From Gemmatimonadota bacterium (GTDB taxonomy: Bacteria; Gemmatimonadota; Gemmatimonadetes; Palauibacterales; Palauibacteraceae): a DNA stretch of 64,000 bases. Location of the stretch: assembly GCA_039589195.1 (NCBI GenBank), contig JBDHHV010000002.1:1126-65125 (forward strand), read 5' to 3'. The translations under genes were made by a program, and so were the position numbers. Positions 13,036 to 32,227 of the stretch are shown piece by piece. Numbering within the stretch: the stretch's first letter is position 1; every line of letters begins with the position of its first letter. The notes under the pieces were generated by a model that was not told the origin of the DNA, did no database searches, and was given only the letters and a program-made list of their open reading frames with translations.

Positions 13036-13075
13036 CCCGTCGTGCGGACCCGACAATCCAGAGGAATACAAGAGG

Positions 13076-13756: not shown

Positions 13757-13801
13757 CGCTCGGCCGGCCCTAGCGGCGAAAAGACCCGACCCGCGAAAAG
13801 A

Positions 13802-13832
13802 AGAGGGCGGCCACTCCGGCCGCCCTCTTTGT
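13802..13832. terminator. Bidirectional intrinsic terminator for the plus OMP gene and the minus PilX-like gene
   Basis: Perfect 11-bp stem AGAGGGCGGCC / GGCCGCCCTCT with a ~5-nt loop. TTTGTG follows on plus; TCTTCTTTTCGC follows on minus. Confidence 0.65.
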
Positions 13833-13874
13833 GCGTTGTGGCTAGAAGGCCCTCAAGCGCGTTGTGGCTAGAAG
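13833..13874. repeat. Perfect 17-nt direct repeat GCGTTGTGGCTAGAAGG x2 (13833-13849 and 13858-13874)
   Basis: The second copy contains the stop codon and last codons of the minus PilX-like gene. The first copy lies in the 3' UTR next to the terminator. Confidence 0.8.
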
Positions 13875-14968: not shown

Positions 14969-15295
14969 TGTCCGCCTCCCACAGTGTGCGTCGACGACGA
15001 GTAAGGGCAAGGCCGGTTCCTGATTGGTGAACCCATCGTAACCGGTTGTCTTGTAGAGCGTTAGGTGGTTTCGCGACTGCATGGTGTTGCACAATTTCGT
15101 CAGCCCCGGGGTTGCAACTTGCAAGCAACCCGCGCAGCGCCATCTCCCGGGCCCGGCGCCGGTCGGGTCAGGTCAGTGGGTCGGGGGGATTCGGGTGCGC
15201 TTGAAGGCGTCGGGAGGGGCGGTCGGCTAGTGCCGGTCGATCGCAAACCGGTCTTTCGCTCCTCGCGGCACTGCCCCGGGCTCGAGGTCGGCACC

Positions 15296-16462
15296 CTATA
15301 TCACTTCGAGCCAGGTTCCCGGCTCCTCGACCGGCCAACCGATCGCACCGAGCGCGTTCAACACGTTGCACGAGTGGTACGCGTAGAGCCAGGTGCCGTT
15401 GCCCAGATCCGTCTGTCCGGCGCTACCGCCCAGCAGGAGGTTCAGACCCGTGATCACGGCGCCTTCGACCGTTTCCACGCCGTTGCTGGTCAGCGTGCCC
15501 CCCACGAGGATCAAGCCATCCCAGTCGAAGTTCCCGTTGATGTCCAGATCACCCATCACGGCCAGGGTCCCGCGCCCGCTGTGACCTGGGCCGGCTGCGA
15601 AGTCCGAGTAGTCGGCGACGATCAGCGGCCACTCGTCCGTGTCCACATCGGTCGCGAAGTCGGGGTACCCATCCTGCGAGACCAGGTAGTCGGCCTGCGC
15701 GAAGCTTCCGTCCAGGATGCCCTGCCAGTCGATCCCCGTGTCGAGCAGGAGCTGCAGGGCGGTTTGCGTACTGTCGATCGCGGGATTGCCATCGACACCC
15801 GGAGGCCACGGACCGCCACCCCCTCCCACACCTCCACCGGCCATCGTGAACGTGCTCTGGGGTAGCGCGATACCGGCCACGTCCTCGCTTCCCGCGACCG
15901 AGCACGAGCCGGGTGTCGCCGCGTCGTGACCATCCACGTTCCCCGCCACCCCGTTCTTCAGCAGCCCGGGCGGAGAGGTGATGGCCGCGTTGACGGAGAA
16001 CCCGGCCACCTTGTGCAACAGAATCGAATTCACGCGCCGCGCCGCCTGGCCACCCTCCGGTGAGTCGTGCGACCCGACCGTGTGGAGCCGGTAGAGCGTC
16101 GACGAATCATCCACGGCCAGCAGCGTGTCCAACCACACCTGGCCCGTTCCATCCACGTAGTTGTACGTAAGCGTGTCGGTGTGAACGCGCCCTCGTCCCA
16201 TAAACTGGGATCGGGCCGCATCGGCCACGTAGAACGCCTTCACGCTGGCGCGGTGATTCTGGTTGATGCGATAGTCCGTGTTCGAGCGCAGATACCCGGC
16301 CGTCGCGATCGCGGTCAGCGCGATCAGCGCGAGGAGTACCGCGCCGAGCGCGAAGCCCGCCTCACCCGGCCCGACCTCTCGGCGCCTGAAGGGGTCCCGG
16401 GTCGGCACGCCGAGCCGGGGCTGCTCCGACTGTCCATGGGGGAAACGTATCAATCCACGCAT
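15296..16462 (-). CDS. PilX_N-like domain protein, paralog 2. Start reassigned; the track ORF 15296..17488 N-terminal extension is spurious.
   Basis: Same architecture as paralog 1 (~65% identity), e.g. GFALGAVLLALIALTAIATAGYLRSNTDYRINQNHRASVKAFYVADAA. ATG preceded by GGAGAG. The longer ORF would overlap the real DUF819 gene on the plus strand. Confidence 0.5.
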   Translation of the reverse strand: MRGLIRFPHGQSEQPRLGVPTRDPFRRREVGPGEAGFALGAVLLALIALTAIATAGYLRSNTDYRINQNHRASVKAFYVADAARSQFMGRGRVHTDTLTYNYVDGTGQVWLDTLLAVDDSSTLYRLHTVGSHDSPEGGQAARRVNSILLHKVAGFSVNAAITSPPGLLKNGVAGNVDGHDAATPGSCSVAGSEDVAGIALPQSTFTMAGGGVGGGGGPWPPGVDGNPAIDSTQTALQLLLDTGIDWQGILDGSFAQADYLVSQDGYPDFATDVDTDEWPLIVADYSDFAAGPGHSGRGTLAVMGDLDINGNFDWDGLILVGGTLTSNGVETVEGAVITGLNLLLGGSAGQTDLGNGTWLYAYHSCNVLNALGAIGWPVEEPGTWLEVI

Positions 16463-16709
16463 ACCGGCAACTCTCCAAGAAGTCATGACTCCGGACGTCG
16501 CGCCTCTGGAGGGCAAGCCCGGTGCCCTATACATCGGCACTCGGTTCTTCACCGTAAGCCGTTGGCGCGATTGCACTTTCCGCAACGATTGACATTCGTG
16601 CACACCGCAGGGACTACCAGGTGCGTGTGCAAAGAATGACGAAACGGCAAGGACGATCAGGGATCCTGGCCGGCTCGGTCTGCCGTCGCGCGCTTCGGCG
16701 GAAGCCGGA

Positions 16710-17879
16710 ATGATCACCGATCCGTTGGGCCTGGCCACCGTCATTGCAGTCGTCACCGCGCTCGGGCTGTGGCTCGATCGACAGTTTTCCTGGGCCGCCA
16801 AGGTCAGCTCGGCGCTGCTCGTCCTCGCGTTCGGCGCGGTGCTCTCCAACCTCGGAGTCGTCCCGGCGGCCTCGCCCGTGTACGACGGGATATTCGGCCC
16901 GGTCACCTCGCTCGCGATCGCGTGGCTCCTGTTCGGGGTTCGCCTCGGAGACCTGCGCGCTGCGGGGCCGCGCATGTTGGGGGCGTTCGGTCTGGCCACC
17001 CTGGGGACGGCGGTGGGGGCGCTGATTGCCGCGCTCCTGTTCGCGGGCGCGTTCGACGGCGATGTATGGCGGCTCGCGGGCGTGCTCACCGGTACGTATT
17101 CGGGTGGAAGCATCAACTTCGTGTCGGTCGGGCGGGCGGTGGAGCTACCGACCTCGCTCTTCTCGGCGGCCGCCGCGGCCGACGCTCTTGTCACGGGGAT
17201 CTGGATGGGCGCAACGCTGCTGCTTCCGCTTTGGCTCGGGAAGCGCTTTCGGCCCATCCCGGGCCGTGAGCGGCCCGACGACCCCGGCGCGCGCGGCGGT
17301 CCGTCCGGGGAGCGAGCCGGGAATCCCGGAGCGCCAAGCTCACCGCTCGCGGGCGCCGACCTCAGGATCACGGACCTGGCGATCTTGATGGCGCTCGGTT
17401 TCCTGATCCTCGAGACCTCCGCAGGCTTGCATGCCCTGGTCCCTGCGATTCCCGTGATCCTCTGGCTCACCACACTCTCACTCGCCATCGCGCAGCTCCC
17501 GGCCGTCCGATCGCTACACGGTGCGCTCCCACTCGGCTATCTCGCACTCCACCTGTTCTTCGTCGTGATCGGGATCGGATCGCGGGTGGATGAGATCCTC
17601 CGGGTGGGACCCGAGGTGTTTTACATCACGGCGCTGGTGGTTCTCATTCACGGCCTCGTGGTCTACGGAGGCGCCTGGCTGGCGCGACTGGATATCGGCA
17701 CTACGTCGGTCGCCTCGCAGGCGGCGGTGGGTGGCCCGTTGAGCGCGGTAGCCCTGGCCATGGCGCGCGGATGGCCCCGCCTCGCACTCCCCGGAGTCGC
17801 GGTCGGTCTTCTCGGTTATGCGGTCGGGACCTACGTCGGTCTTGGGGTGGCGTGGCTCACGCGCGCCCTCATCGGATGA
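16710..17879 (+). CDS. DUF819 family integral membrane protein (YjcL-like)
   Basis: ~11 TM helices. Conserved N-terminus MITDPLGLATVIAVVTALGLWLDRQ...SALLVLAFGAVLSNLGVVP typical of DUF819. Confidence 0.7.
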   Translation: MITDPLGLATVIAVVTALGLWLDRQFSWAAKVSSALLVLAFGAVLSNLGVVPAASPVYDGIFGPVTSLAIAWLLFGVRLGDLRAAGPRMLGAFGLATLGTAVGALIAALLFAGAFDGDVWRLAGVLTGTYSGGSINFVSVGRAVELPTSLFSAAAAADALVTGIWMGATLLLPLWLGKRFRPIPGRERPDDPGARGGPSGERAGNPGAPSSPLAGADLRITDLAILMALGFLILETSAGLHALVPAIPVILWLTTLSLAIAQLPAVRSLHGALPLGYLALHLFFVVIGIGSRVDEILRVGPEVFYITALVVLIHGLVVYGGAWLARLDIGTTSVASQAAVGGPLSAVALAMARGWPRLALPGVAVGLLGYAVGTYVGLGVAWLTRALIG

Positions 17880-18248
17880 CGCGGAGTTTCCGCCCGACAG
17901 CTCCACTTTCCGTGGGCTTCCCGAATTTCTGCCAGTGAGAGTATATAGCAGTGGCACGACAGTTCCTTCGCGACCCCTCTCCGAGCACGGCCCCTCGAAA
18001 CAGTGGCGCACCGAGTCGCGATGCTCTTTCGTCTCTGGTCCACGTCCCCGACGGCCGACCAGAACCCGAACCCGCCGTCCCCGATGGCCAACACCGGTGC
18101 CAGGCGTGATCGCGCTCGTGCGAGGCGCGTATGCCGGCGGCAACTTCGAGAGCGCCAAGAACACGTTGGCCAGCTCCAACGAGCAGGGCTGTCCGCTCTG
18201 GCCGCCCGGAGCACATGCGGGAGGCATCGACCTCCCGCGCACATGGCG

Positions 18249-18285
18249 AAAGAGGCCCGGCAGGATGCCGGACCTCTTTCTTGTT
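18249..18285 (+). terminator. Intrinsic terminator, strongest on the plus strand. Also serves minus gene 18317..22126.
   Basis: AAAGAGGCCCGG-CAGGATG-CCGGACCTC, then TTTCTTGTTGG. 9-bp stem with 1 mismatch, 7-nt loop, U-tract on plus. The minus orientation gives TTTCGCC. Confidence 0.6.
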
Positions 18286-18316
18286 GGTCGAATCTCCAGG
18301 TCGCTTGCTGGTGGGT

Positions 18317-21300
18317 CTACCGGTTCGGCGCGCGGAGGCGGAGCTCGGAGCCTCGCTCCATTACATCTCGGGTGATGTTTTCTTCCGAAACCCGTCCATC
18401 GGGCCAGTGCACGCGGACCGCGGTGGGACGACCGCTGAACCCCAGCGTCTGAACGGCCTCATCGCGCGACCAGTACCCTCCACCGGAGCGCACCTCGCGA
18501 AGCGGGCCGAGCTCGTCCTCGTAGATGAGTTGCACGCTCGCACCGATGGCCTGCGGATTCGCCGGGCTTCCAGTCAAGCGAATCCTGATTCCCGGCGTCG
18601 CACCGACGTTTCGATACAACTTTGTCGGCGCGCCATTCTGAGCCACAACGAGATCCACTCGCCCGTCGCGATCGTAGTCGGCGAACGCCGCGCCTCTCGC
18701 GTCCCCGTACACCGCGATTCCGGAGACCTGACCCGGGACGGGGACCAGGCCTCCCCGACCATTACCGCGTAGCCACAGGCTCCGGCCCGCATCGTGGCGT
18801 GGGATCCCGCGTCGCATCGGGAAGAAGTTCTGCGTGATGAGCACGTCCTCGGCCCCGTCTCCATCCAGGTCCGCCACACCCACATGGGACGCGGGCGCGA
18901 GCTGGGCCTCGAGCGGGAGCGGGACGGCCTCGAAGTGCGTCCGGCGGTTCAGAAAGAGCATGTGCTGGAGGGTGACGACCTGGAGCCGGCCCGCCTGGGC
19001 GATGGTCTCGCCAAAGAGATCGTCCAGGTCGGCCGTCACGAAGGCTTCATGCCCTCCGGGACGCCGTTGCAGGAACGGAATCCCACGTCCGAGCTGGTCC
19101 AGTCGACCCAACGACCGCAGCTTCCCGCCCGGCTCCGGGAGCGCCTCGACGAGATCCAGCGTCCCGTTTCGATCCAGGTCGCCGTACACGAGCGTATAGC
19201 GGTCGTCGTGCTCCGCGTGCTCGGTGTTGCTCCCCCACCCCGTGACCACGAGATCGGGATTCCCGTCCCCGTTCAGATCGCCAGTCGTCACCCCGTTCCA
19301 GCGGCCGAGTGCTTCCCCGAGTCCGAGCGCGTCCGTCGCATCGGTGAACACGCCGCCCTCGTTGCTGAAGACCCGCACGGGGCCCCACTCGGTCGCGAGC
19401 ACGAGATCCGGATCACCATCCACATCGATATCCGAGAACACGGCCGCGGTCACGAGACCGACGTCGACGAACGGGGTGGAAAGTGCCGAGTCGGGGAGAA
19501 ACCGACCTCCCTCGTTCCGGAGGAGACGCGAGGACGCGGCGATGGGGTACGCGACGGGGATCACCCGGCCACCGACGAACAGATCGAGATCCCCATCGCC
19601 GTCCACGTCGGCCTGGGCGAGGGCGCCTGCCGTGCTCCGGTCGCCGGGGACGGCCGGCTCGACGGAACCAGCTCGGGCTCCATCCCCGCCCAGCGACAGG
19701 CGCACGACCGATGGGATCGCGATGGCCTCGGCGGGTGAGCTGGCCTCGTAGGACATTTCACCGACGAGAAGATCGTGTCCCGCTCCCGTCGCACTCGGTC
19801 CGGCCGTGCCGGAAGCGCCGGGCTCGGCCGGGAGTCCGAGTACCGTCGTCTGATCCCAGGCCACGTCACCCCAGCCGTTATCCACCGGCTCGAGCGACCC
19901 CGCGTCGTTCCGATAGTAGGCCAGCCGACCGCCGCGTCCACCCGCGATGACCAGGTCGGGGTCACCGTCACCGTCCGCATCCAACCACGTGACACCGGGA
20001 CCGAGCTGGCTCAAGCGATTGGGGAGCAAAGGCTGGCGGAGCGCATCGTCGAACGGCGTGTCGACGTGGACGTGTCCAAGGCTGGCGGACACGTCGATGA
20101 AATGTGTCTCCCGCGTCTCTCGCGCGGCTCCCGGTCCTCGCGCGGCTCCCGGTCCCGGCGTGGTGCCTGGCCCGCCCGCCTCGGGCTGCCCGGTACTGTC
20201 CTCCTCGATCTCGTACAGCCGGTTCGGCTGGACGTCGGCGATCCGGGTCTCGCCCCCACCCGGCCACTCAACGATCAACTCTAGGGGATCGCCGTCGCCC
20301 GCGGCGAAGGTCATGGCTCCGTCGGACGAGGACAGGTAGAAGCCGCCCGCCGTAACCTGCTTCTGCTGCTCCCCGGCCGGGTGACCGAGAAGCCGCACCC
20401 GTGCACCTACTCCGCCGGTGTTGGGTGGCTTTCCGGTCAGGCGCACGGCCACTCGCGCGGCGCCGGACTCGTTTCGGTACAGGGCCGGTGGATCCCCGTA
20501 GCGTGTCACCACCAAATCCCGATCCCCATCGCCGTCCAGGTCGGCCGATGCGATCCCGTGGGAGATGTCGGCCTCCGCTCCGAACCCCCAGCCCTCGCTC
20601 ACGTCCTCGAAGGTGGAGCTCCCCCGGTTCCGGAATGCGGCGTTCGGCTGCGGGAGGCTCGGGAAGGTGCTCAACTCACGCTGCCAGTCCACCGCGCCGG
20701 GCGCGGCTCGGAGGCGCGCGTGCGTGTCCGCATCCAGTTGATCCCACAGGTGCCCGGTGGTGACGAGAAGATCCTCGTACCCATCCAGATCCACATCCAG
20801 GAAGAGCGCGCCCCAGGTCCAATCCGATGCGGCGATGCCCGCCGCCCATGCGACCTCGGCAAACGTCCCGTCACCCCGATTCAGTTGCAGGGTGTTCCGG
20901 TTTACCTGCGGGCGCGGATCGATCTCGCCCGGCGCGACCGGGTCCGGCATCACGCTCGGCACCTGCATCAAGCGGCGCCCTCGATCACGCGCCAGCATGT
21001 CGGTGGTGAGCAGGTCCACGTCCCCATCGCGGTCCAAGTCGGAGAAGTCGACCGTCATGGAGGAGAGGCTCGTGGTGCGGATCGCGATCGCGGGCGCCGC
21101 GCGGAAAACGCCGTCCCCATCGTTCAGCCACACGTGATCCGGACTCGAGAAATCGTTCGCCACGTACAGATCGGCGTCGCCGTCCAGGTCCCAGTCGTGA
21201 AACCGCGCGCTGAGGCCCCAATCTCTCGGCGAGGCGCTCAGCGGCTCCCCTGCTTCGTCCAGAAAGCGCCCGCCGGTGAAGTCGATGCGCTCGAACCGGC

Positions 21301-22126
21301 CGCTCCCGTCGTTGAGATAGAACTCGTCGGGCTCGCCTAGCTCCCAGCGTCTGGTGACGGTGCCTTCCACTTCGAGCCGATAGTGCCCTTCCAGCTCGGG
21401 GGGGAGCCGAACGGCTCCCATCTCATCCGGCCGGATCCGGTCGAACGAGCGCTGCGCGGGAGAGAACACGTCGTCGGCCTGGCGGGTCTTGTAGTTGGCG
21501 ACGTAGAGGTCCAGGTCACCGTCCCCGTCGGCATCGGCGAGCGCCGGCGTGGTGCTCCCGGCCTCGGTCATGAACCCGGCATCGGGGCGCTCGACGAAGC
21601 GGCCGGCGCCATCGTTCAGGAAGAGCCGGTTGCGGGCCCCGTGGACGGTGACGACGAGGTCGAGGTCCTTGTCCGCATCGACGTCGGCGAAGGCGGCGCC
21701 CCGCGCCGCGAGACCGGACAGGGCCAGCCCGGCGCGCTCCGTCACATCCTCGAAATGCAACCTGCCCTGGTTTCGGTACAACACGCTCTGTCCAGCGACA
21801 CCGGCGAAGAAGAGGTCGGCGAGCCCGTCTCCGTCCACGTCGCCGATCGCGACCCCGCCACCCTCGGCCAGGATTCGGTTCTCGAGCCGGCTCTCCTCGG
21901 AGACCTCGTACAGGAAAGAGATCCCGGCCCGTCGCGCATCCACCCGCGTGAAGCCCGCCCGGCCGCCACGCACCGAGAGCGGACGCCAACGGTAGCCGTC
22001 CTCTTCCACCCACCCGGGTGGGGGCGAATCACCGCCGCACGCCGCGAGGCTTCCGCCGGCGCCGAGGAGAATGGCGAGCCATGGCGTTCGGGCAGGCGCC
22101 CCCGCTCTCACGAATCCTCCCGCCAC
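18317..22126 (-). CDS. CRTAC1-like lipoprotein: tandem double unit of FG-GAP/VCBS beta-propeller repeats plus ASPIC/UnbV domains. GTG start.
   Basis: Lipobox LAILLGAGGSLAACGG. Many DVDGDG/DADGDGD FG-GAP calcium-binding repeats. Two UnbV-like modules (mid-protein and the C-terminal ...GGGYWSRDEAVQTLGF...VRVHWPDGRV). Confidence 0.7.
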   Translation of the reverse strand: MAGGFVRAGAPARTPWLAILLGAGGSLAACGGDSPPPGWVEEDGYRWRPLSVRGGRAGFTRVDARRAGISFLYEVSEESRLENRILAEGGGVAIGDVDGDGLADLFFAGVAGQSVLYRNQGRLHFEDVTERAGLALSGLAARGAAFADVDADKDLDLVVTVHGARNRLFLNDGAGRFVERPDAGFMTEAGSTTPALADADGDGDLDLYVANYKTRQADDVFSPAQRSFDRIRPDEMGAVRLPPELEGHYRLEVEGTVTRRWELGEPDEFYLNDGSGRFERIDFTGGRFLDEAGEPLSASPRDWGLSARFHDWDLDGDADLYVANDFSSPDHVWLNDGDGVFRAAPAIAIRTTSLSSMTVDFSDLDRDGDVDLLTTDMLARDRGRRLMQVPSVMPDPVAPGEIDPRPQVNRNTLQLNRGDGTFAEVAWAAGIAASDWTWGALFLDVDLDGYEDLLVTTGHLWDQLDADTHARLRAAPGAVDWQRELSTFPSLPQPNAAFRNRGSSTFEDVSEGWGFGAEADISHGIASADLDGDGDRDLVVTRYGDPPALYRNESGAARVAVRLTGKPPNTGGVGARVRLLGHPAGEQQKQVTAGGFYLSSSDGAMTFAAGDGDPLELIVEWPGGGETRIADVQPNRLYEIEEDSTGQPEAGGPGTTPGPGAARGPGAARETRETHFIDVSASLGHVHVDTPFDDALRQPLLPNRLSQLGPGVTWLDADGDGDPDLVIAGGRGGRLAYYRNDAGSLEPVDNGWGDVAWDQTTVLGLPAEPGASGTAGPSATGAGHDLLVGEMSYEASSPAEAIAIPSVVRLSLGGDGARAGSVEPAVPGDRSTAGALAQADVDGDGDLDLFVGGRVIPVAYPIAASSRLLRNEGGRFLPDSALSTPFVDVGLVTAAVFSDIDVDGDPDLVLATEWGPVRVFSNEGGVFTDATDALGLGEALGRWNGVTTGDLNGDGNPDLVVTGWGSNTEHAEHDDRYTLVYGDLDRNGTLDLVEALPEPGGKLRSLGRLDQLGRGIPFLQRRPGGHEAFVTADLDDLFGETIAQAGRLQVVTLQHMLFLNRRTHFEAVPLPLEAQLAPASHVGVADLDGDGAEDVLITQNFFPMRRGIPRHDAGRSLWLRGNGRGGLVPVPGQVSGIAVYGDARGAAFADYDRDGRVDLVVAQNGAPTKLYRNVGATPGIRIRLTGSPANPQAIGASVQLIYEDELGPLREVRSGGGYWSRDEAVQTLGFSGRPTAVRVHWPDGRVSEENITRDVMERGSELRLRAPNR

Positions 22127-22153
22127 ATGCTCACGAGCCAGTCGCTGGCGCCC

Positions 22154-25100
22154 TCACCGATCCTCCGCCGGGACCGGCATGGGGATCTCGAGCTCCGTCA
22201 CTCCTTCCGGCACCGGAGTCTCGGTCACCACGCCCCCGGGCCAACGCACTTCGATGGCGCGCGGTGGCTCGCGCAGCCCCAGGACCTGGACCAGATCGTT
22301 CTGCGACCAGTAGCCGGAGCCTGACTGAATCTCACGCACGGGACCCGACCCGGCGGCGTACAACACCCGCAGGCCGGCACCGACGCCATGCGGGTTCCCC
22401 GGTGGCCCGAGCAGCCGCACGCGGAGACCCGGCTCGGCGCCGACGTTGCGAAACAGGAGCGTGGCGGTGCCGTTCTGGCTCACGACCAGATCGGTGCGCG
22501 CGTCACCGTCGTAGTCGGCGAGCGCCGCTCCGCGGGGGTCGCCGTAGACCGCGACGCCGCTCTCGGTGGCCGGGACCGGCTCCAGCGCCCCGCTCCCATC
22601 GCCGGCCAGCCACAGGCTCCGACCCGCATCGTATCGCGGGGTCTCGGGCTCCGTCGCGAAGAAGTTCTGCGTCAGGAACACATCCTCGTGGCCATCCCCC
22701 TGGAGATCCGCCACCCCCACGTAGAACGCCGGCGCGACCTGCGCCGCGCTCGGCAGGCGAACGGGCTCGAATCTGTCTCCACGATTCAGGAAGAGCGTGT
22801 GTGACAGGGTCCGGGCCTCCAGCCGAGTCGCCGCGCTCAGTTGCTCGCCAAAGACGGCGGTGAAGGTGGCCTCCGAGTAGGCCTCGAACGAGGGCACGAA
22901 GCGGCGCAGGGCCGGGATGGCTCTCTCGAGCCGGCGCAGGGGCTCGAGCGACGCGATGTCCCCGATCCGGGTGTCGTGTCTGGCGCGCACCACCTCGTAC
23001 GTGCCGTTCCCATCCACGTCACCGTGGTACAGGTAGAGTGGGTGCTCCGGCGTCGCCTCGAACCCCGTGTTATCCCCCCATGAGGTGGCGATCAGGTCCG
23101 GGCGGCCGTCCTCGTCCAGATCGCCGCTCGCGAGCCCGTTCCACGGCCCGCTCCACGCGTCGAGTCCGTACTGGCGCGTGGCGTCCCGGAATGCTCCCGC
23201 GTCGTTTCGGAACAGGCGGATCGCCCCCCACTCCAATGCGAGGACCAGATCGGGGTCGCCGTCCTGATCCACGTCGCTGAACAGTGCAGCCGAGACCATG
23301 CCGATCGCCCCCAGCAGGGGGTCCATCCCCGTGTCGGGCTCGAAGACGCCCTCGACGTTCCGGAACAGGCGCGAGGGGACGGCGGTCGGGTAAACCGTGG
23401 GGGCGACGCGCCCCCCGACGAACAGGTCCAGGTCTCCGTCGGCATCCACATCGGCCAGCGCGAGCGGGCCGACGGTGGGCAACGCACCGGGAACCGCGGG
23501 CCCCACGTGCGCGCTGGCACGCCCCGTCCCCAAACCCGCGAGCCGCGCGCGAAGCACCGACGGCACCTCACGGGCCTCCTGCGGGCTCGAGGCCTCGTAG
23601 TTCATCTGGCCGATCAGCAACTCGACCCCGCCATCCGCCGTCGGCAGGCCGAGGATCGTGCTCTGGTCGAGCGAGGACGCCGGCATCTCAACACTCACCG
23701 GGCTCAGGCGCCCGGCGTCGTTTCGATACAGGGCCAGCCGCCCGCCGCTACCACTCCCGACGACGAGGTCCGGGTCTTCGTCCCCATCCACGTCGATCCA
23801 CGACACGCCGGGGCCCAGCTGGCTGAGCCGATACGGGAGAAGGGGTTGGCGCAGGAACTCGTCGAACGAGGACTCGGCATGGGCGTGCCCCAACGGCACC
23901 TGCTCGAAGATCAATGCCCCCGCTGCCGTCGCTGGAGCGGACGTGGGGATTCCGGGCGCCGCCTCCGGTTCGCGCACCTCGTACAGCCGGTTCGGGACGA
24001 CGCCGTCGACCCGCGTCGTCTCCCCGCTCGGCCAGCGCACCTCGATCGAAAGCGGGCCATCGCCGCCGGCCGCGAACGTGTACGCAGGCTCCGAGCTCGA
24101 AAGATACGATGCGGTCGCCGTCACCTCCCTACGCTGCTCGGCCACGGACCCACCCAACACATGGATCGTCGCGCCGATCCCCCGGGTGTTCGGAGCGAGC
24201 CCGTCGAGCCGCACCCTCACACGCGGGGCCGATGACTCGTTCCGCAGGACCAGCGGCGGCGCGTTCAAGCGCGATACGACGAGATCCGAGTCGCCATCCC
24301 CGTCCAGATCGCCGCCCGCGATGCCCTGGGCGATGTCCGGCTCCACACCGAACCCCCAGCGCTCCGAGCGCTCGTCGAACGTGGAGTCGCCCCGGTTGTG
24401 GAACGCCAGGTTCGGGAGGAGGAGCGGTGGATACAGCCGGTTCTCCACCTGCCAGTCGATCTGGCCGCGCGCCTCGCCGGCCCGCATCTGGAGATCCGCG
24501 TCGAGCAGATCCCAGGCGTGGCCGGTGGTCAGAAGAAGATCTTCGTACCCATCCAGATCCACATCCAGGAAGAGCGCGCCCCAGGTCCAATCCGAGCCCG
24601 TGATCCCCGCCATCGGCGCCAGGTCGGCGTACGTACCGTCTCCCCGATTGAGCTGCAGGGTATTGCGGGTTCGCTGCGGGCGGCTCGTCAGGTCGCCGGG
24701 GCCGGTGGTGTCCGGCAACATCTGGGGGAGGATCCGCTTGCGGCGTACCTCATCCACCCCTTCCATGTCCGCCGTGAAGAGATCCTCGACCCCGTCGCGG
24801 TCCACGTCGGCGAAGTCCAGCGTCATGCAAGCGAGGCTCGTCGTCCGGATGAGCTCCGGGGGGGCTGCCCGGAACCGCCCTCCTCCGTCGTTGATCCAGA
24901 TGTGGTCGGGGCTCTCGAAGTCGTTGCACACGTACAGGTCGGGTATCGCGTCCCCGTTCAGGTCGTGGAAGCGGACGCTCAAGCCCCAGTCGCGCGGCGC
25001 CTCGGTCAGGGGCTCGCCGCGCTCGTCGAGGAAGCGTCCGCCGGTGAACGAAACCGGCTCGAACCGGCCCGCACCGTCGTTCAGGTAGAACTCGTCTTCC

Positions 25101-25927
25101 TCGGCGAGCTCGAAGCGACGGACGAAGTCTCCGATCCTCGTGACCCGGTAGTGGTCGGCGAACTCCGGAACGACCTCGTAACGCTCGCCCCGGCGCACCA
25201 TGACCCGCTCCGAGGTCCGGTCTTCGGGGGGGAACAGGTCGCGCGCGACACGAGTCTTGTTGTTGGTGACGTAGAGGTCCAGGTCGCCATCCCCGTCGAC
25301 GTCGGCGAGCGTCATGCTCCGGCTGGCGCGGGATACCCGGAAGCCGGCCTCCCCGGACACGTCGGTGAAGACACCTGTCCCGTCGTTGATCAGCAGACTG
25401 TTCGGGTGACCCGTCGCCGTGACGATGAGGTCGAGATCGCCGTCCCCATCCACATCCGCGAACGCCGCCCCCGTCGACGCACGGTCCGCCAGGGCGACCC
25501 CCGCGCCCTCCGTGATCTCCTCGAACTGCCACCCACCCAGGTTCCGGTACAGGGCGTTGGGGCCGGCGATACGACACAGGTATACATCGGTCCGCCCGTC
25601 CCCATCCACGTCGCCCAGCGCCACCCCCGACCCATCCGCCAGCGTACGATTCTCGAGCGCGAGCGCCGCGGGCAGCTCGTTCGCAGCTTCGATCCCGGTT
25701 CGCCCGGGCGACAGGATCTCGAACCCTGCCGTCTCCCGGCCTTCGACGTCGAGCGCCAGCCAGCGGTGGTCCGCGCCCTCCTGCCATTCGGCCGGCGCAT
25801 CCCCTCCACACCCGACCACGAGCGCGGTCAGACACATGAGCCCCGCGAACAGGGCATGCCCCGTGAGGAGGGCGGGCCCCGTGACGAGGGCGCGCCCCGC
25901 ATGGCGCGCGGGCCCGGAGACGAGCAC
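22154..25927 (-). CDS. CRTAC1-like lipoprotein, paralog B (double FG-GAP/UnbV unit). Start uncertain: GTG at 25927 or ATG at 25837.
   Basis: Same architecture as 18317..22126. Lipobox LTALVVGCGG. Two UnbV-like modules. C-terminus GSGYWSQNDLVQVLGL...IEVRWPGGVV. Confidence 0.65.
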   Translation of the reverse strand: MLVSGPARHAGRALVTGPALLTGHALFAGLMCLTALVVGCGGDAPAEWQEGADHRWLALDVEGRETAGFEILSPGRTGIEAANELPAALALENRTLADGSGVALGDVDGDGRTDVYLCRIAGPNALYRNLGGWQFEEITEGAGVALADRASTGAAFADVDGDGDLDLIVTATGHPNSLLINDGTGVFTDVSGEAGFRVSRASRSMTLADVDGDGDLDLYVTNNKTRVARDLFPPEDRTSERVMVRRGERYEVVPEFADHYRVTRIGDFVRRFELAEEDEFYLNDGAGRFEPVSFTGGRFLDERGEPLTEAPRDWGLSVRFHDLNGDAIPDLYVCNDFESPDHIWINDGGGRFRAAPPELIRTTSLACMTLDFADVDRDGVEDLFTADMEGVDEVRRKRILPQMLPDTTGPGDLTSRPQRTRNTLQLNRGDGTYADLAPMAGITGSDWTWGALFLDVDLDGYEDLLLTTGHAWDLLDADLQMRAGEARGQIDWQVENRLYPPLLLPNLAFHNRGDSTFDERSERWGFGVEPDIAQGIAGGDLDGDGDSDLVVSRLNAPPLVLRNESSAPRVRVRLDGLAPNTRGIGATIHVLGGSVAEQRREVTATASYLSSSEPAYTFAAGGDGPLSIEVRWPSGETTRVDGVVPNRLYEVREPEAAPGIPTSAPATAAGALIFEQVPLGHAHAESSFDEFLRQPLLPYRLSQLGPGVSWIDVDGDEDPDLVVGSGSGGRLALYRNDAGRLSPVSVEMPASSLDQSTILGLPTADGGVELLIGQMNYEASSPQEAREVPSVLRARLAGLGTGRASAHVGPAVPGALPTVGPLALADVDADGDLDLFVGGRVAPTVYPTAVPSRLFRNVEGVFEPDTGMDPLLGAIGMVSAALFSDVDQDGDPDLVLALEWGAIRLFRNDAGAFRDATRQYGLDAWSGPWNGLASGDLDEDGRPDLIATSWGDNTGFEATPEHPLYLYHGDVDGNGTYEVVRARHDTRIGDIASLEPLRRLERAIPALRRFVPSFEAYSEATFTAVFGEQLSAATRLEARTLSHTLFLNRGDRFEPVRLPSAAQVAPAFYVGVADLQGDGHEDVFLTQNFFATEPETPRYDAGRSLWLAGDGSGALEPVPATESGVAVYGDPRGAALADYDGDARTDLVVSQNGTATLLFRNVGAEPGLRVRLLGPPGNPHGVGAGLRVLYAAGSGPVREIQSGSGYWSQNDLVQVLGLREPPRAIEVRWPGGVVTETPVPEGVTELEIPMPVPAEDR

Positions 25928-25946
25928 CGGCTGTCCGCGCTCCGGG

Positions 25947-28520
25947 TCATTCACCGTCGGCAGATCCCGCGGCCTGGGTACCGATCGAGCGCTGAAAGAG
26001 CTCGAAGATGCGGCGGTACTCGTCGGTCCACGACGTCGGCTCCACGAAGCCGTGGTTCTCCACCGGGTAGACCGCCATCTCCCAATTCTCCTTGCCGAGC
26101 TCGATGAGGCGCTGCGCCAGACGCACCACATCCGAGAAGTGCACGTTCGTGTCGTACATCCCGTGCGCGATCAGGAGATGCCCCTTCAGGCCGTCGGCGA
26201 AATAGATGGGTGAGGAGCGGCGGTACGCCTCCTCATCTCCGTCGGGGAGGTTGAGGATACGGCTCGTGTACCAGTGGTTGTAGTGGGCCCAGTCGGTCAC
26301 CGAGCGGAGCGCGGCGCCTGCCGCGAACACGTCCGGTTCCGTGAACAGCGCCATCAGCGTGATGAACCCGCCGTACGAGCCGCCGTAGATGCCGATGCGA
26401 CCCGGATCCACGCCCTCGGCGCTCGCCAGGTAGCCAGCCCCATCGACCTGATCGCTCAGATCCCAGCCGCCCATGTGCCGGTAGATCGCGGTGCGCCAAT
26501 CACGCCCGTACCCCGCCGAGCCCCGGTAATCGATGTCGAGAACGGTATATCCGTTGGCGGCGAGGAAGTGGTGGAACATGTACTCGCGGTAGTAGCTCGA
26601 CCACCAGTTGTGCACGTTGTGCAGGTAGCCCGCCCCGTGAACGAAGACCACCCCCGCTCCGTTCGCACGGGCGCCCACGTCGGAGGGCCGGTAGATGCGA
26701 GCCGGCACGCCGGTCCCATCACGGGCTTCGACCCGCACGATCTCGGGCTGGATCCAGGGGAAGGTCAGCCACTCGGCCGTCGGCGATACGGTCACCTGGT
26801 CGAGCGCGGAATCGATGTCATTATCGCTCACGAACAACTCGGGCGGCCGGTTGGAACGCGAGACGAGCACAGCCAGCCGGTCCCCACCGGGTGAGGGGGT
26901 CGTCCGGTACGATCCTTCGCCGGCCAGCACCTGCGTCCGCCGCGCGCCGTCGAACTCCATCCGCCACGGGTGAAGGTCGAACGGCGACACCTCGCTCGTG
27001 TGGAGCAGGAACCTGTCGCGTCCCTCTGGGATCGTGACCGACTGCACCTCCCACTCGCCGCTCGTGAGCTGGCGCCGGTCCGAGCCGTCCACGTCGATCG
27101 CGTACAGGTGGGCGTAGCCGGTTTCCTCGCTCACGTACCACGCCCGCGGTCCGTCCGCGGACACGGGGGCGTCGTCCGGGAACCAGCCGAGGCACCCACC
27201 ACCGAAGCGCGGGAAGCACGGACCACCGACCCAGGCCTCATCCTCGTGAGAATCCAGCAACGTGAGCTCGCCGGTCGCGGCCTCGAGCGCGTACAGGCGC
27301 CAGGCCTTGTAGTCGAAGTCGACCGCGAACAGGAGACCGTGCGTGCCCTCATCGTTCCACCCGGCGAACCGGGCGACGGCCAGGGCCGGGGTCTTCGCTC
27401 CGGATTGCCGCGTGGCCTCGGCCCCTCCGGCACCCTCGCCCGCCCCGGCGCCCTCGGCTGCCCCGGCACCCTCGACGGCCCCCGGCTCGTCGGCCTCGGC
27501 CTCCGCTGCGGGCTCATCGCCCTCTTCCGCATCGGACGCGGTCAGATCCAGCCAGGTCGCCCCACCCGTCTCCACGTCTATGAGAGCGATACGGGCCTCG
27601 GACTGTTCGTCCCCGACCTTCGCCCGCACCTGGCTGTCCTCCGTATATCCGGAAGTGGTCACCCAACGCGGAACGAGCGTCTGCGTGGCGTCCTGAGCCG
27701 GCTTTGTCACGGTCGCCACCACGAACGCGCCCGTCGGGTCGGGCGCGAGGGCCTGTACGCGCTCTATCGAATCCAGGTACAGCGGCTCCGGGCGCTCGGC
27801 CTCTCGCCGGTCTTGATCGGCTTCCCGGCGCTCGTCCCGCTCTTCCGCGACGCGCACATGCTCGAACAGCTCGCGCTGCTGCTCTTCCAGGAACCCTTTG
27901 TGGCCTTCGGCGGGCTCGTCGTCCTTTGGCGCGGGGCCGCTGCGGACGTCCGTCAGCTGGCGCACGGCTCCATCGGCACGCGTCAGCGAGTACAGGTTGC
28001 CGTTGCGGCGGAATAACACCTGCTGGTCATCACCCGAGAAGGCGGGCGAGCTCTCCGCCTCGGTCGTCCGGGTGAGTCGGCGTACCGATCCGGTGGCGCG
28101 CTCGACCAGGTACAGATCGCCTTCGACCGAGGTCACACGCCACGCGTGGTCGGCCGACACGTCGCCACCGGAAAAGTGCACGGCAAGCGAGTCCGCCGCC
28201 TCGTCGTCGAGCCGTTCCGGTTCTCCACCGGTGGCCGGGACCCGGTACAGATCGCGCTCCTCGTGCCACGCCTGACCTCCCGGAAGCCACCGGAAGTAGA
28301 TCCACTGCCCATCATCGGTCCATCGAACGCCCGTGGGGGCCTGACCCACCAGCTCCGCGCCCCGCATGATGCTCTGGATTGTGAGCGGGAACTCGAATCC
28401 CACCGTCACCTCGGGTTCCTGCAGAGCGGTCGTTTGCCCCAGCAATGGCCTGGCCGGCAGGAGGGTGAGGACGGAAAGCGCCAGTACACGGTGGTTTGCT
28501 ACCGGTAGTCGCATCGTCAT
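25947..28520 (-). CDS. S9 family serine peptidase (prolyl oligopeptidase / dipeptidyl-peptidase type) with N-terminal beta-propeller and an internal low-complexity insert
   Basis: Signal peptide. C-terminal alpha/beta hydrolase with GGSYGG (GxSxG), plus D and H (ENHGF). Confidence 0.85.
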   Translation of the reverse strand: MTMRLPVANHRVLALSVLTLLPARPLLGQTTALQEPEVTVGFEFPLTIQSIMRGAELVGQAPTGVRWTDDGQWIYFRWLPGGQAWHEERDLYRVPATGGEPERLDDEAADSLAVHFSGGDVSADHAWRVTSVEGDLYLVERATGSVRRLTRTTEAESSPAFSGDDQQVLFRRNGNLYSLTRADGAVRQLTDVRSGPAPKDDEPAEGHKGFLEEQQRELFEHVRVAEERDERREADQDRREAERPEPLYLDSIERVQALAPDPTGAFVVATVTKPAQDATQTLVPRWVTTSGYTEDSQVRAKVGDEQSEARIALIDVETGGATWLDLTASDAEEGDEPAAEAEADEPGAVEGAGAAEGAGAGEGAGGAEATRQSGAKTPALAVARFAGWNDEGTHGLLFAVDFDYKAWRLYALEAATGELTLLDSHEDEAWVGGPCFPRFGGGCLGWFPDDAPVSADGPRAWYVSEETGYAHLYAIDVDGSDRRQLTSGEWEVQSVTIPEGRDRFLLHTSEVSPFDLHPWRMEFDGARRTQVLAGEGSYRTTPSPGGDRLAVLVSRSNRPPELFVSDNDIDSALDQVTVSPTAEWLTFPWIQPEIVRVEARDGTGVPARIYRPSDVGARANGAGVVFVHGAGYLHNVHNWWSSYYREYMFHHFLAANGYTVLDIDYRGSAGYGRDWRTAIYRHMGGWDLSDQVDGAGYLASAEGVDPGRIGIYGGSYGGFITLMALFTEPDVFAAGAALRSVTDWAHYNHWYTSRILNLPDGDEEAYRRSSPIYFADGLKGHLLIAHGMYDTNVHFSDVVRLAQRLIELGKENWEMAVYPVENHGFVEPTSWTDEYRRIFELFQRSIGTQAAGSADGE
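27405..27539 (-). repeat. Low-complexity Glu/Ala/Gly tandem repeat inside the S9 peptidase
   Basis: Protein: EPAAEAEADEPGAVEGAGAAEGAGAGEGAGGAEAT. DNA: degenerate GAGGG(C/T)GCCGGGG-like units. Confidence 0.7.
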
Positions 28521-28657: not shown

Positions 28658-29581
28658 TCAGCCGACCATCACCTCGCGTCGCATGGAGAGGGCCTCCACG
28701 CACCCGGCGACCTGCTCCTCCCAGCGTGGGAGCCCGAGGCCGAACCTCTCCTTCAGCTTGCGACCGCTCAACAGACTGTTCCGTGGCCGGTGGGCGGCGG
28801 TCTCGTACTCGGCCGAGGTAATGGGCCGGATGCTCTCCAGACGTAGCTGGGGGTCTCCCACGCGACGCAAGCAGGCCGCGATCTCCTCGGCGAAGCCGTG
28901 CCACGTCGTCCGACCCGGGCCGGCCAGGTGGTACAGGCCTCCGTGCTCGATCAGCGTCTCGGCCAGCGGCGGGCTCTTCCCGGACGCGTGCCGCAGCAGC
29001 TCCGCGGTGGCGGCAGCGATCTCCCAGCACCATGTCGGACTCCCGGTCTGGTCGTTCACCACCGACACCTCCACGCGGCGCCTGAACAGATCGAGCATGG
29101 TCGTGAGGAAGTTGCGCGTCCGACCGCCGTACACCCAGGCCACACGCAGGATCAGGTGCGGAGCGCCGACGGATCGCACGCCCTCATCCCCCAGTAGCTT
29201 GGTGCGGCCGTACACGCTCAGCGGTCCGGGGGCGTCATCTTCCTCGTATGGCTCGTCCTTCTCTCCGTCGAACACGTAGTCGGTGGAATAGTGGACGAGC
29301 GGCACAACCAGCCGGGCGGCTTCCTCGGCGAGAATCCGGGGGGCGTGCGCGTTGACGGCGAGCGCTTCATCGGGCTCGGACTCGGCGCGGTCCACGTCGG
29401 TGAACGCGGCCGCGTTGACGATCAGGTCCGGACGGAGCGCGCGCACAGTGCCCACGATCTCATCCGGGTCTGCCAGGTCCAACTCCGCCCGGTCCGTGGC
29501 GTGGACCTGTCCGAGCGGTGCGAGGGCGCGAACCAGCTTTGACCCGACCTGCCCGTTCCGGCCCGTCAGAAGGATCTTCAT
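28658..29581 (-). CDS. rfbD: dTDP-4-dehydrorhamnose reductase
   Basis: MKILLTGRNGQVG Rossmann N-terminus. YxxxK (YGRTK). Family-typical length. Start overlaps the rfbC stop. Confidence 0.88.
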   Translation of the reverse strand: MKILLTGRNGQVGSKLVRALAPLGQVHATDRAELDLADPDEIVGTVRALRPDLIVNAAAFTDVDRAESEPDEALAVNAHAPRILAEEAARLVVPLVHYSTDYVFDGEKDEPYEEDDAPGPLSVYGRTKLLGDEGVRSVGAPHLILRVAWVYGGRTRNFLTTMLDLFRRRVEVSVVNDQTGSPTWCWEIAAATAELLRHASGKSPPLAETLIEHGGLYHLAGPGRTTWHGFAEEIAACLRRVGDPQLRLESIRPITSAEYETAAHRPRNSLLSGRKLKERFGLGLPRWEEQVAGCVEALSMRREVMVG

Positions 29582-30186
29582 CAGGTAGCGAAGGCCGGAT
29601 GGGTCTCCAGAGCCGACTCCACGACGCCTGTGAACTCAGGCAGCCGGCCGGCGGCCCGAAGCTGCTCGAGCGTCAGGCCGGCTTCGTCTTTGGGCGACAG
29701 CACGGGAGTGCGTAGCGGCCAGTCGATCGAGGCCGCGGGGTCGTTCCATAGCAGCGTGTGCTCGTGACTCGGCTCGTACAGTGCGGTGCATTGATACACG
29801 AGGTCCACTTCGTCGCTGAGCGCTATGAACCCGTGCGCGAAATCGGGCGGCACGTACAGCTGCCTTCCGTTCTCGGCGGACAGCCGAACGCCGATCCAGC
29901 GCGCGAACGTGGGCGAGCCGACCCGGATGTCGACCGCCACATCAAACACCTCTCCGCGCGTCAGCGACACCAGCTTCCCCTGCGGGCGAGGGTATTGAAA
30001 GTGGAGCCCTCGCAGTACGCCGAAGAGCGAGCGGGAGCAGTTCACCTGGACGAAGTCTTCGTCGATCCCGGCCGCGCGGTAGCGCGGCGCCTGGTAGCAC
30101 TCCACGAACGCGCCGCGGGTGTCGCGGTGGATTTCGCGGTCCACGAGTATCGGCCCGCTCGGCTCGTGAATGGGATAGAACTTCAT
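29581..30186 (-). CDS. rfbC: dTDP-4-dehydrorhamnose 3,5-epimerase
   Basis: RmlC cupin motifs: RGLHFQ, DVAVDIRVGSPTF, ...YVPPDFAHGF. Confidence 0.9.
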   Translation of the reverse strand: MKFYPIHEPSGPILVDREIHRDTRGAFVECYQAPRYRAAGIDEDFVQVNCSRSLFGVLRGLHFQYPRPQGKLVSLTRGEVFDVAVDIRVGSPTFARWIGVRLSAENGRQLYVPPDFAHGFIALSDEVDLVYQCTALYEPSHEHTLLWNDPAASIDWPLRTPVLSPKDEAGLTLEQLRAAGRLPEFTGVVESALETHPAFAT

Positions 30187-31142
30187 CAGTCGAGACCTTC
30201 CTCCAGGATCAGCCTCAGGTAGTGCCCGTAATCGGTGTGCTCGATCGGCTCGATCGTCTTCGCCAGCCCGACGGTGTCGATGAAGCCCATCCGGTACGCG
30301 ACCTCCTCCGGACAGGCGATCTTGAGCCCCTGGCGGTCTTCTACGGTGCGGATGAAGTTCGCGGCCTCCAGCATGGAACCCGGGGTCCCGGTATCGAGCC
30401 AGGCGTCGCCCCGCCCCAACTTCTCCAGCCGGATCGCACCGCGCTCGAGATAAGCGCGGTTCAAGTCCGTAATCTCGAGCTCGCCGCGCGCGGAAGGTCT
30501 CAGGCCGGAGGCTAGCTCCGAAGCCTGGCCGTCGTAGAAGTAGAGCCCCGTGACCGCGTAGTGTGAGCGCGGCTGTCGTGGCTTCTCCTCGAGACCTATG
30601 ACACGGTTCTCGGCGTCGAACTCCGCCACCCCGTACCGTTCCGGATCGTGGACCCGGTAGCCGAACAGGGTTGCCCCGTTCAGCTCGGCGGCGGCCCGGC
30701 GCAGACGCGAGGCGAGGCCGTGCCCGTAGAAGATGTTGTCCCCGAGGATCAGAGTGGATGGCTCGGCCCGCAGGAACTCATCTCCGATCACCAGGGCCTG
30801 GGCGATCCCCTCGGGCGCCGGCTGCACGGCGTAACGCAGGTCGAGCCCCCATTGCGCCCCGTCCCCGAGCAGGCGCTCGAACGCGGCCTCGTCCTCTCGC
30901 GTCGTGATGACGAGGATCTCCCGAATCCCGCACAGCATCAGCGTGCACAGCGGATAATAGACGAGCGGCTTGTCGTAGACGGGGAGCAGTTGCTTGCTGG
31001 CGGCCCGCGTCATCGGGTGGAGCCGGGTTCCGGAGCCGCCGGCGAGCAGGATCCCACGCCGGGTCGAGACGGGGATCGCCGCCGGACGCGCGCTTGCTCG
31101 CTCGCCTGCTCGCGCGGGAGACGAGTCCCGCTCGACCGCCAC
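30186..31142 (-). CDS. rfbA: Glucose-1-phosphate thymidylyltransferase. GTG start chosen after the rfbB stop; the track ORF start at 31295 would overlap rfbB.
   Basis: [36 protein letters not shown] matches the RmlA N-terminus. EEKP...GLYFYD motif. Confidence 0.8.
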
Positions 31143-31165
31143 CGCGGCGGTCCCGGCTTCCCCGC

Positions 31166-32227
31166 TCACGCGCTCACCCCCAACCGCTCGCCGCCATACG
31201 TCGTCTCGCGGGTGCGGGCCCACCAGGTCTCGTGGTCCAGGTACCACTGGATCGTGCGTCCGAGACCCGTCTCGAAGCTCTCGAGGGGCTCCCAACCCAA
31301 CTCGCGGCGCGTCTTGCTCGCGTCGATCGCGTATCGTCGATCGTGCGCGCGTCGGTCGGCCACGAAGCTGATCTGACTCCGGAAGCTGCGGCCGTCACCG
31401 CGCGGGCGAATCGCGTCAAGGGTGTCACAGAGCTGGTTTACGACCTGGATGTTCTGCCGTTCGGCGCTCCCGCCTATCCCGTACGTCTCGCCGACCCGGC
31501 CCCGCAGCAGGACCGCCATGAGCGCCCGCACGTGATCCTCCACATAGAGCCAATCCCGCACATTGCGCCCATCCCCGTACACGGGGAGCGTCCTCCGCTC
31601 GAGAGCGCGCAGGATCATGTTCGGGATGAGCTTCTCGGGGAATTGGAACGGGCCGTAGTTGTTGGAGCAGTTCGTGACGATGACGGGCAGGTCGTACACA
31701 CGTTGCCACACGCGCGCGAAGTGGTCCGCGGCGGCCTTGCTGGCCGCATACGGCGAGTTGGGGTCGTACGGCGACGACTCCGTGAAGAAGCCTCGCGGCC
31801 CGAGCGTACCGAACACCTCGTCCGTGGATACGTGGATGAAGCGGAACTCGGTCTGATCGATCTCATCCGGGTCTACGTAGTGGCGGCGCGCTTCCGTCAG
31901 GAGGGTGCATGTCCCCACCACGTTCGTGTGCAGGAAGAGCATCGGCCCGTCGATCGACCGATCCACGTGCGACTCCGCGGCGAGGTGGAAGACGGCGCGC
32001 GGTCGATACTGCTCGAACAGCCGTCGAACCTCCGCGCCCTCGCAGATGTCCACCTGCTCGAAGCGATAGCGGTCGGACTGTTCCACCGAAGTGAGCGATT
32101 CAAGGTCACCGGCGTACGTCAGACAATCCACGTTCACGACCGCGTGCTCGGTCTCTCGGATCAGATGTCGGATGAGCGCGGAGCCGATGAATCCAGCCCC
32201 TCCCGTGACCATTATCGGTCGATTCAA
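31166..32227 (-). CDS. rfbB: dTDP-glucose 4,6-dehydratase. TTG start with a GGAGG Shine-Dalgarno; alternative ATG at 32212.
   Basis: [10 protein letters not shown] Rossmann. YAASKAAAD (YxxxK). RmlB-typical C-terminus. Confidence 0.88.

Follow-up and report, generated by a model that had tools for sequence, protein, structure and literature searches.

The 64,000-nucleotide stretch analyzed here, which we call the window, comes from contig JBDHHV010000002.1 of a Gemmatimonadota bacterium in the order Palauibacterales and has ~68% G+C. At 18317-28520 it contains three co-directional open reading frames (ORFs) on the minus strand, in the order peptidase, g2 and g3. The first encodes an S9 serine peptidase and the other two encode predicted lipoproteins, each of which has two units consisting of an FG-GAP propeller and an UnbV_ASPIC beta-sandwich. 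We conclude that g2 and g3 are members of a known, already catalogued and uncharacterized family for which this double-unit build is standard, and that the locus is an ordinary lineage-specific cluster of a marine-type Gemmatimonadota genome with no new architecture. As to function, we favor the view that the two lipoproteins bind ligands in the envelope or at the surface and capture polymers for uptake, a tentative reading that we rate slightly below an even chance.

The domain content of the two lipoproteins is clear. Pfam finds FG-GAP_3 in g2 (7e-75, eight stretches) and in g3 (9e-76, nine stretches), together with two stretches of UnbV_ASPIC in each protein. Scanned singly, the halves of both proteins have four to six FG-GAP_3 stretches followed by one UnbV_ASPIC at the end of each half. 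There are 14 DxDxDG-type motifs per protein, seven in each unit, which bears out the calcium-binding motifs described in a first-pass annotation made from the sequence alone. That annotation also assigned lipoprotein signals to both proteins, and we agree: each has a signal peptide that closes with a lipobox, ALVVG-C in g2 and SLAA-C in g3 (lipoboxes LVVG-C and LAA-C), and the lipobox Cys is conserved in at least 90% of 68 homologues. The two proteins are paralogues of ~1,230-1,270 amino acids (aa) and are 53% identical to each other over 1,249 aa by BLASTP. NCBIfam assigns neither of them to a specific family, the sole hit being a sub-threshold match to FusH, and Pfam matches to PliI and BBS2_Mid were set aside, as neither has an individually significant stretch and both overlap the FG-GAP repeat regions.

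The first-pass annotation held that each protein arose by internal duplication and that a self-comparison would reveal it. BLASTP comparison of each lipoprotein with itself finds no internal repeat, so the dot-plot suggested there would have come out negative. However, 22 family members yielded profiles of the N-terminal and the C-terminal unit, and the profile-profile alignment of the two is collinear for 472 columns, with a probability of 99.9 and an E-value of 3.5e-34, and spans the first blade through UnbV_ASPIC. Because this alignment, the half-protein Pfam scans and the structure model all show collinear units despite the negative BLASTP result, the two units are homologous and the duplication is real but old, involving a whole unit.

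The AlphaFold model of g2 (22190-25789; 1,200 residues, built from a 68-sequence alignment) is mainly beta-strand, with a mean predicted local distance difference test score (pLDDT) of 91.1 and a predicted template modeling score (pTM) of 0.90. The linker between the units is the sole segment with a pLDDT below 50. Across the family alignment, conservation is lowest in the corresponding linker region, and the two units are about equally conserved. Foldseek gives mouse CRTAC1 (9etn_A) as the top match of this model in the PDB, with an E-value of 3.2e-22, a TM-score of 0.72 when normalized to CRTAC1 and a sequence identity of ~17%; the other fold matches are generic multi-propeller scaffolds with low TM-scores. 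A profile search of the PDB likewise has 9etn as its best match (3e-32), and the propellers of integrin alpha-IIb appear as weak sequence relatives (~2e-5). Thus Pfam, the profile-profile alignment, the AlphaFold model and the fold match to CRTAC1 concur that each lipoprotein has two propeller plus UnbV_ASPIC units, as had been claimed.

Vertebrate CRTAC1 resembles g2 and g3 in that an UnbV_ASPIC sandwich comes after a propeller of the FG-GAP type that carries calcium motifs. The differences are that the vertebrate protein has one unit, whereas g2 and g3 have two units and a predicted lipoprotein anchor and are without an EGF domain (Pfam detects no EGF-family domain in either). The vertebrate protein has a C-terminal EGF-like domain, which binds calcium, as well as an O-glycosylated tail (PMC10477339). 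Domain content, sequence profile and fold all place the units of g2 and g3 in the CRTAC1/ASPIC-UnbV family, but they are not vertebrate-type CRTAC1.

The first-pass annotation took a single unit, in proteins about half as large, as canonical, which would make the double unit a rarity. A single unit is indeed true of mouse CRTAC1, whose chain is 551-586 aa, but the closest bacterial relatives are all double. With g3 as the query, more than 7,000 homologous proteins were retrieved at E<=1e-10. The best 120 of them are all 1,165-1,296 aa long and have the same domain set, and each of these is named 'CRTAC1 family protein', 'FG-GAP-like repeat-containing protein', 'VCBS repeat-containing protein' or 'enediyne biosynthesis protein E4'. 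In a scan of one genome per species, 581 candidate stretches encode relatives, and the best 79 loci cover the query from end to end. These full-length matches are mostly from Gemmatimonadota, with others from KSB1, Verrucomicrobiota, Cytophagia and Thermodesulfobacteriota (at least five phyla). The junction itself was probed with a 261-residue segment that covers the first UnbV_ASPIC, the linker and the opening blades of the propeller after it. At E<=1e-30 this probe hit 166 cluster representatives (50% identity level), in most cases around residues ~520-800 of a protein that is ~1,200-1,290 aa long. The double-unit build is therefore the norm in a large bacterial family and is not an unusual architecture.

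Bacterial proteins of ~1,200-1,290 aa that are named for CRTAC1 or UnbV share with g2 and g3 their length, two-unit build and conserved N-terminal Cys, at 45-82% full-length identity. They show no architectural difference from g2 and g3, but their neighbors differ: a SusC-like receptor lies near many of them and a DPP4-like peptidase lies here. A public entry of 1,266 aa (P0011) is 100% identical to g2 over the aligned part. An exact-sequence look-up of g3 with two candidate starts gave no match, and an orthologue that is 82% identical to g3 (P0001) lies in the same gene order. As to the wider family, the literature searched mentions bacterial members in three settings only: an expansion of paralogues in Solibacter (PMC3174227), multiple copies of the genes in Poribacteria (PMC3909097), and a CRTAC1-family gene that is flanked by genes for homologues of hydrazine synthase subunits (PMC12758564).

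The peptidase is, by its sequence and predicted fold, a DPP4-type enzyme of the S9B group. Pfam matches it to Peptidase_S9 (6e-50) and DPPIV_N (1.5e-19), and the sequence has an N-terminal Sec-type signal peptide without a lipobox Cys. Its best sequence matches in the PDB are bacterial dipeptidyl peptidase IV (DPP IV) and prolyl tripeptidyl peptidase (5e-44 to 3e-38), with the similarity to solved enzymes limited to residues ~450-850. The AlphaFold model (pLDDT 79, pTM 0.80) matches the bacterial DPP IV structures 5yp1 and 2ecf over the whole length, with TM-scores of 0.70-0.75. S715 (in GGSYGG), D790 and H823 are invariant across 55 peptidase homologues and have the Ser-Asp-His order and the GxSxGG motif, so they can be read as the catalytic triad. 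The same 55 homologues have an invariant Cys pair, C435 and C443, which is compatible with an exported protein. In the conserved helix FLEEQQxELFEH, E212 is invariant and the next Glu is replaced by A, R, K or D in orthologues. In DPP4, a double-Glu motif holds the substrate N-terminus and so accounts for the dipeptidyl specificity; at the level of sequence, E212 is the only residue here that could be matched to it confidently. A protein identical to the whole peptidase is already in public collections, and both this entry and the one that matches g2 carry generic names.

Bacterial DPP IV and prolyl tripeptidyl peptidase (5yp1, 2ecf, 5olj and 2d5l) have the propeller and alpha/beta-hydrolase fold in common with this peptidase, which is ~100 aa longer than bacterial DPP IV and differs further by a long helical arm (model residues 207-241) and by an acidic loop (330-375) that is disordered and inserted in the propeller. 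The latter is the low-complexity insert noted in the first-pass annotation, and it is indeed present as an acidic/Gly-Ala stretch, of which residues 330-375 have a pLDDT below 50. Its position is constant in all of the orthologues while its length and sequence vary widely; long versions, some of them longer still, occur in orthologues without a CRTAC1-like neighbor, and other orthologues have almost none. We also considered the insert as a feature specific to the pairing of the peptidase with CRTAC1-like proteins and rejected this, since it varies freely and long versions occur in unpaired orthologues. Rather, it is a hypervariable disordered surface loop of the whole orthologue family.

The neighbors of the homologues were analyzed at 81 loci. 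Of these, 79 come from species genomes (L003-L081), and the other two are L001 (the closest relative) and L002, which is a duplicate of L037 and was omitted from the clustering of neighbors. The commonest neighbor family is a SusC-like TonB-dependent receptor (CarbopepD_reg_2 plus Plug), which is found within 6 kb in 28 of ~80 loci. The second commonest, found in 25 loci, is a family of ~600 aa with an invariant N-terminal Cys. This family escapes the Pfam SusD models, with just two sub-threshold matches, but when its profile is compared with the PDB, SusD homologues are the only matches (E 8e-6). On sequence grounds it looks like a very divergent SusD-like lineage outside the Bacteroidota. 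Seven loci (L006, L012, L014, L020, L026, L033 and L043) have the same-strand order SusC-like, SusD-like and double-unit CRTAC1-like. Members of the ~600-aa family in our alignment A3, whose genes lie between that for the SusC-like receptor and the double-unit CRTAC1-like gene, are encoded at 7950-9914 in L006, 6575-8581 in L012, 5924-7930 in L014, 6866-8749 in L020, 4144-5805 in L043 and 17521-19383 in L044.

In L001 and 10 distinct loci from species genomes (L003, L016, L024, L025, L035, L037, L041, L050, L051 and L061), all of them from Palauibacter-like or unclassified Gemmatimonadota, the gene immediately upstream of the CRTAC1-like gene encodes a peptidase orthologue (61-89% identical). 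Between one and three CRTAC1-like genes follow the peptidase. Where there is a single gene it is of the g3 type, and in some genomes a g2-type gene is inserted between it and the peptidase. The link was seen in this lineage only: ~65 of the 79 species-genome loci have no such peptidase within 10 kb of the homologue, and when the sample was taken from the peptidase side, two of seven orthologues were paired (L082 and L088) and five were in unrelated contexts without a CRTAC1-like neighbor. Unpaired orthologues (58-63% identical) occur, for example, in an arginine biosynthesis operon and beside SSF transporters.

Two of these loci have peculiarities of their own. In L088, the peptidase orthologue is followed at 8697-14523 by a double-unit gene (1,197 aa), a single-unit gene with FG-GAP and UnbV_ASPIC (695 aa) and another double-unit gene (1,253 aa); the 695-aa gene may have arisen by the splitting or decay of a copy, or it may be a paralogue that naturally has a single unit. 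In L083 (Longimicrobiales, 8516-18262), an orthologue 63% identical to the peptidase lies between an ArgR-type repressor gene and an arginine biosynthesis operon whose products have semialdehyde dehydrogenase, amino-acid kinase, aminotransferase, argininosuccinate synthase and argininosuccinate lyase domains, which is an unexpected setting for a secreted DPP4-like enzyme.

As was claimed from the sequence, the tandem lipoprotein genes are closely spaced and co-directional with the S9 peptidase; the exact spacing depends on the choice of start codons. Translation of g2 could begin at GTG 25954 (1,266 aa), GTG 25927 or ATG 25837, and the first of these agrees with the 1,266-aa public entry P0011. 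For g3, GTG 22111 is an alternative start. The distance from the g2 stop to the g3 start is 27 nucleotides (nt), or 42 nt with GTG 22111, and the peptidase stop is either 19 nt from the g2 start (GTG 25927) or the two genes overlap by 8 nt (GTG 25954). Gene callers also chose overlapping starts for the gene after the peptidase in orthologous loci. A promoter scan found no promoter-like sites and a terminator scan found four terminator-like sites versus 2.8 expected, both of which are uninformative; none of the terminator-like sites is on the coding strand within the cluster. From the tight spacing or overlap, here and in the orthologous loci, and the lack of a terminator-like site on the coding strand within the cluster, we infer that the peptidase and the following lipoprotein genes are probably co-transcribed.

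Taken together, the role that we favor for g2 and g3 is ligand capture for uptake because the genes of many homologues come directly after those for a SusC-like TonB-dependent receptor and a SusD-like lipoprotein of divergent sequence. Calcium-stabilized propeller lipoproteins in the cell envelope would bind extracellular polymers destined for uptake, and a periplasmic or secreted DPP4-type (S9B) exopeptidase would trim short peptides. In the Palauibacter-like lineage, CRTAC1-like genes may have been recruited behind the DPP4-like peptidase, and the pairing would suggest peptide or glycoprotein as the substrate stream, if the two are functionally linked. Several points weigh against this role. 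The CRTAC1-like lipoprotein gene is third in SusC/SusD-type uptake loci of several related genomes, but no SusC-like or SusD-like gene is present among the scanned ORFs of the window, so the uptake context is borrowed from homologues that are ~50% identical. The peptidase link is confined to one lineage, in which gene order is conserved well past the cluster, so that common descent may account for the adjacency in place of selection for a joint function. The propellers could equally be enzymes, and our literature searches (CRTAC1 family, UnbV, FG-GAP with SusC/SusD, and Palauibacterales) turned up no functional study of the bacterial members and no experimentally known function for any of them. 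A bolder version of the same idea has two parts: that Palauibacter-like marine Gemmatimonadota have a dedicated module for harvesting proteins or glycoproteins, in which the lipoproteins catch polypeptides that are proline-rich or glycosylated at the envelope and hand fragments on to the exopeptidase, and that double-unit CRTAC1-like lipoproteins are an unrecognized third component of a widespread class of SusC/SusD-like transporters in several phyla. We consider it quite unlikely that both parts are true.

The first-pass annotation had proposed instead that g2 and g3 are exposed at the surface and serve in calcium-dependent adhesion or aggregation, with maturation or processing by the upstream S9 peptidase. 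The 14 DxDxDG-type motifs per protein, the weak relationship to the integrin propellers, the lipoprotein signals on both proteins, the tight packing of the genes behind the peptidase and the adjoining surface-polysaccharide genes would all fit such a role. However, to enter the active site of an S9B enzyme a peptide must be short and its N-terminus free, whereas a mature lipoprotein has an acylated Cys at that end; for this reason, and because both partners are widespread without each other, maturation by the peptidase is disfavored. Furthermore, the polysaccharide context is not kept in the Palauibacter loci, Pfam finds no Ig, cadherin or fibronectin domain in either lipoprotein, and the commonest neighbors of the homologues are SusC/SusD-like. 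This leaves the calcium motifs and the weak integrin similarity to speak for adhesion or aggregation, and we regard the proposal as very improbable. A different possibility is that the lipoproteins are themselves enzymes, with a calcium-dependent active site in each propeller that acts, for example, by cleaving glycans on a polymer that is later processed by the neighbors. The 68 homologues have many invariant polar residues outside the calcium motifs (H635, Q648, R794, Q1017 and R1086 in the numbering of the g2 model), and the place behind SusC/SusD pairs, where the homologues are found, is often held by enzymes in polysaccharide utilization loci. But at ~50% identity many invariant residues are expected with or without catalysis. 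Moreover, the PDB searches matched CRTAC1 and generic multi-propeller scaffolds and no characterized enzyme, by sequence or fold, and no enzyme family scored above the NCBIfam cut-off. An enzymatic role is thus less likely than ligand binding, and we would be surprised to see it confirmed.

It is also conceivable that the adjacency has no functional meaning, that is, that the peptidase is a stand-alone housekeeping enzyme of the periplasm in Gemmatimonadota and that in one lineage CRTAC1-like genes simply came to lie downstream of it, with vertical inheritance thereafter. The orthologues in unrelated contexts and the varying number of CRTAC1-like genes after the peptidase agree with this. So does the gene order of the linked lineage, which is kept far beyond the cluster (a convergent group of YncE-like and Big_1 genes and an M16 peptidase pair); vertical inheritance by itself may thus explain some of the conserved adjacency. 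On the other hand, the spacing is consistently very tight or overlapping, and the pairing still holds where the peptidases are 61-66% identical, with flanking genes that vary from locus to locus. We consider this explanation rather doubtful, yet worth keeping in mind. CRTAC1-like proteins of bacteria occur in very large numbers in Gemmatimonadota, Verrucomicrobiota, Bacteroidota, KSB1 and other phyla. That their genes repeatedly follow SusC/SusD-like pairs, and a DPP4-like peptidase gene in one lineage, is a testable lead that may point to nutrient capture and not to adhesion. The SusC/SusD-like link across phyla is the most useful by-product of this analysis and a concrete route to the function of the family.

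Table 1. Coordinates of the three genes and of their parts in the window
Feature	Position	Strand	Details
S9B (DPP4-type) serine peptidase	25947..28520	-	857 aa; Sec signal peptide
Peptidase low-complexity insert (acidic/Gly-Ala)	27390..27542	-	~aa 327-377
g2, predicted double-unit CRTAC1-like lipoprotein	22154..25954	-	lipobox Cys codon 25808-25810
g2 N-terminal unit	23972..25789	-	propeller (7 Ca-type motifs) + UnbV_ASPIC; from Pfam half-scan, motif positions and model residues 1-606
g2 inter-unit linker	23924..23956	-	model residues 612-622, pLDDT <50
g2 C-terminal unit	22190..23908	-	propeller (7 Ca-type motifs) + UnbV_ASPIC; from Pfam half-scan, motif positions and model
g3, predicted double-unit CRTAC1-like lipoprotein	18317..22126	-	1,269 aa; lipobox LAAC, Cys codon 22037-22039
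g3 N-terminal unit	20207..22021	-	5 FG-GAP_3 stretches; UnbV_ASPIC aa 572-638; seven Ca-type motifs
g3 C-terminal unit	18320..20086	-	4 FG-GAP_3 stretches + UnbV_ASPIC; collinear with N-terminal unit (profile-profile)

The gene rmlD lies 137 nt upstream of the peptidase start and belongs to a large surface-polysaccharide cluster directly upstream of the peptidase (28658-31295, 32309-35950 and 37257-56009, all on the minus strand). In addition to rmlD, rmlC and rmlA, this cluster encodes a 1,213-aa protein with SPOR and DUF5916, a sulfotransferase, an ATP-binding cassette (ABC) exporter and several glycosyltransferases of families 2 and 4, one of which is fused to a GH2-like TIM barrel. We considered a link to these dTDP-rhamnose/polysaccharide genes as a general feature and rejected it, as the rml genes are kept upstream in the closest relative, L001, only and not in the Palauibacter loci.

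At its downstream end, the cluster meets a convergent DUF819 gene (16710-17879, plus strand). The intergenic region between this gene and g3 (17880-18316) is 437 nt in the window, and its counterpart in L001 is ~1.4 kb and contains an extra 303-aa gene of no family, which indicates an insertion or deletion difference between close relatives. The ORF at 17514-18242 appears to be a high-GC artefact, as it is rich in Arg, Pro and Ser and has no family match. Beyond the DUF819 gene are two tandem paralogues on the minus strand (13868-15124 and 15296-16399), which are 64% identical over 355 aa. In both, the conserved motif 'YLRSNTDYRINQNHRAS' comes after a hydrophobic segment at the N-terminus. Pfam assigns no family to either of them, and the pair is also present in L001 (347 and 366 aa). 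The far upstream extension in the ORF 15296-17488 (its N-terminal two thirds) is another apparent high-GC artefact, again rich in Arg, Pro and Ser and without a family match.

The group that is conserved with the cluster in the paired lineage consists of three genes on the plus strand of the window (9089-13773), which encode a YncE-like propeller (427 aa), a Big_1/Invasin_D3-like protein of ~890-950 aa and a protein of ~215-245 aa for which there is an OMP_b-brl call in L001. The same group is present in L002 (13805-18428) and L082 (15225-19785). In Palauibacter-like genomes it is convergent with the peptidase/CRTAC1-like cluster and directly adjoins it, whereas in the window the two are parted by the DUF819 gene and the two paralogues (13868-16399). 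The gene pair for M16 (insulinase-type) peptidases is at 2416-5102 on the minus strand, and in L002 and L082 the same pair lies just past the YncE-like/Big_1 group.

Two other parts of the window deserve a brief mention. The plus-strand gene at 5376-8939 encodes a protein of 1,187 aa whose sole recognizable domain is a spermine/spermidine synthase at residues 707-832, and an orthologue is found at the end of L001 (1,047 aa called). At 56371-59354, on the minus strand, a small cytochrome c (CytoC_RC-like) is fused to TPR repeats and lies beside a LytTR-type response regulator and its sensor of the His_kinase family.

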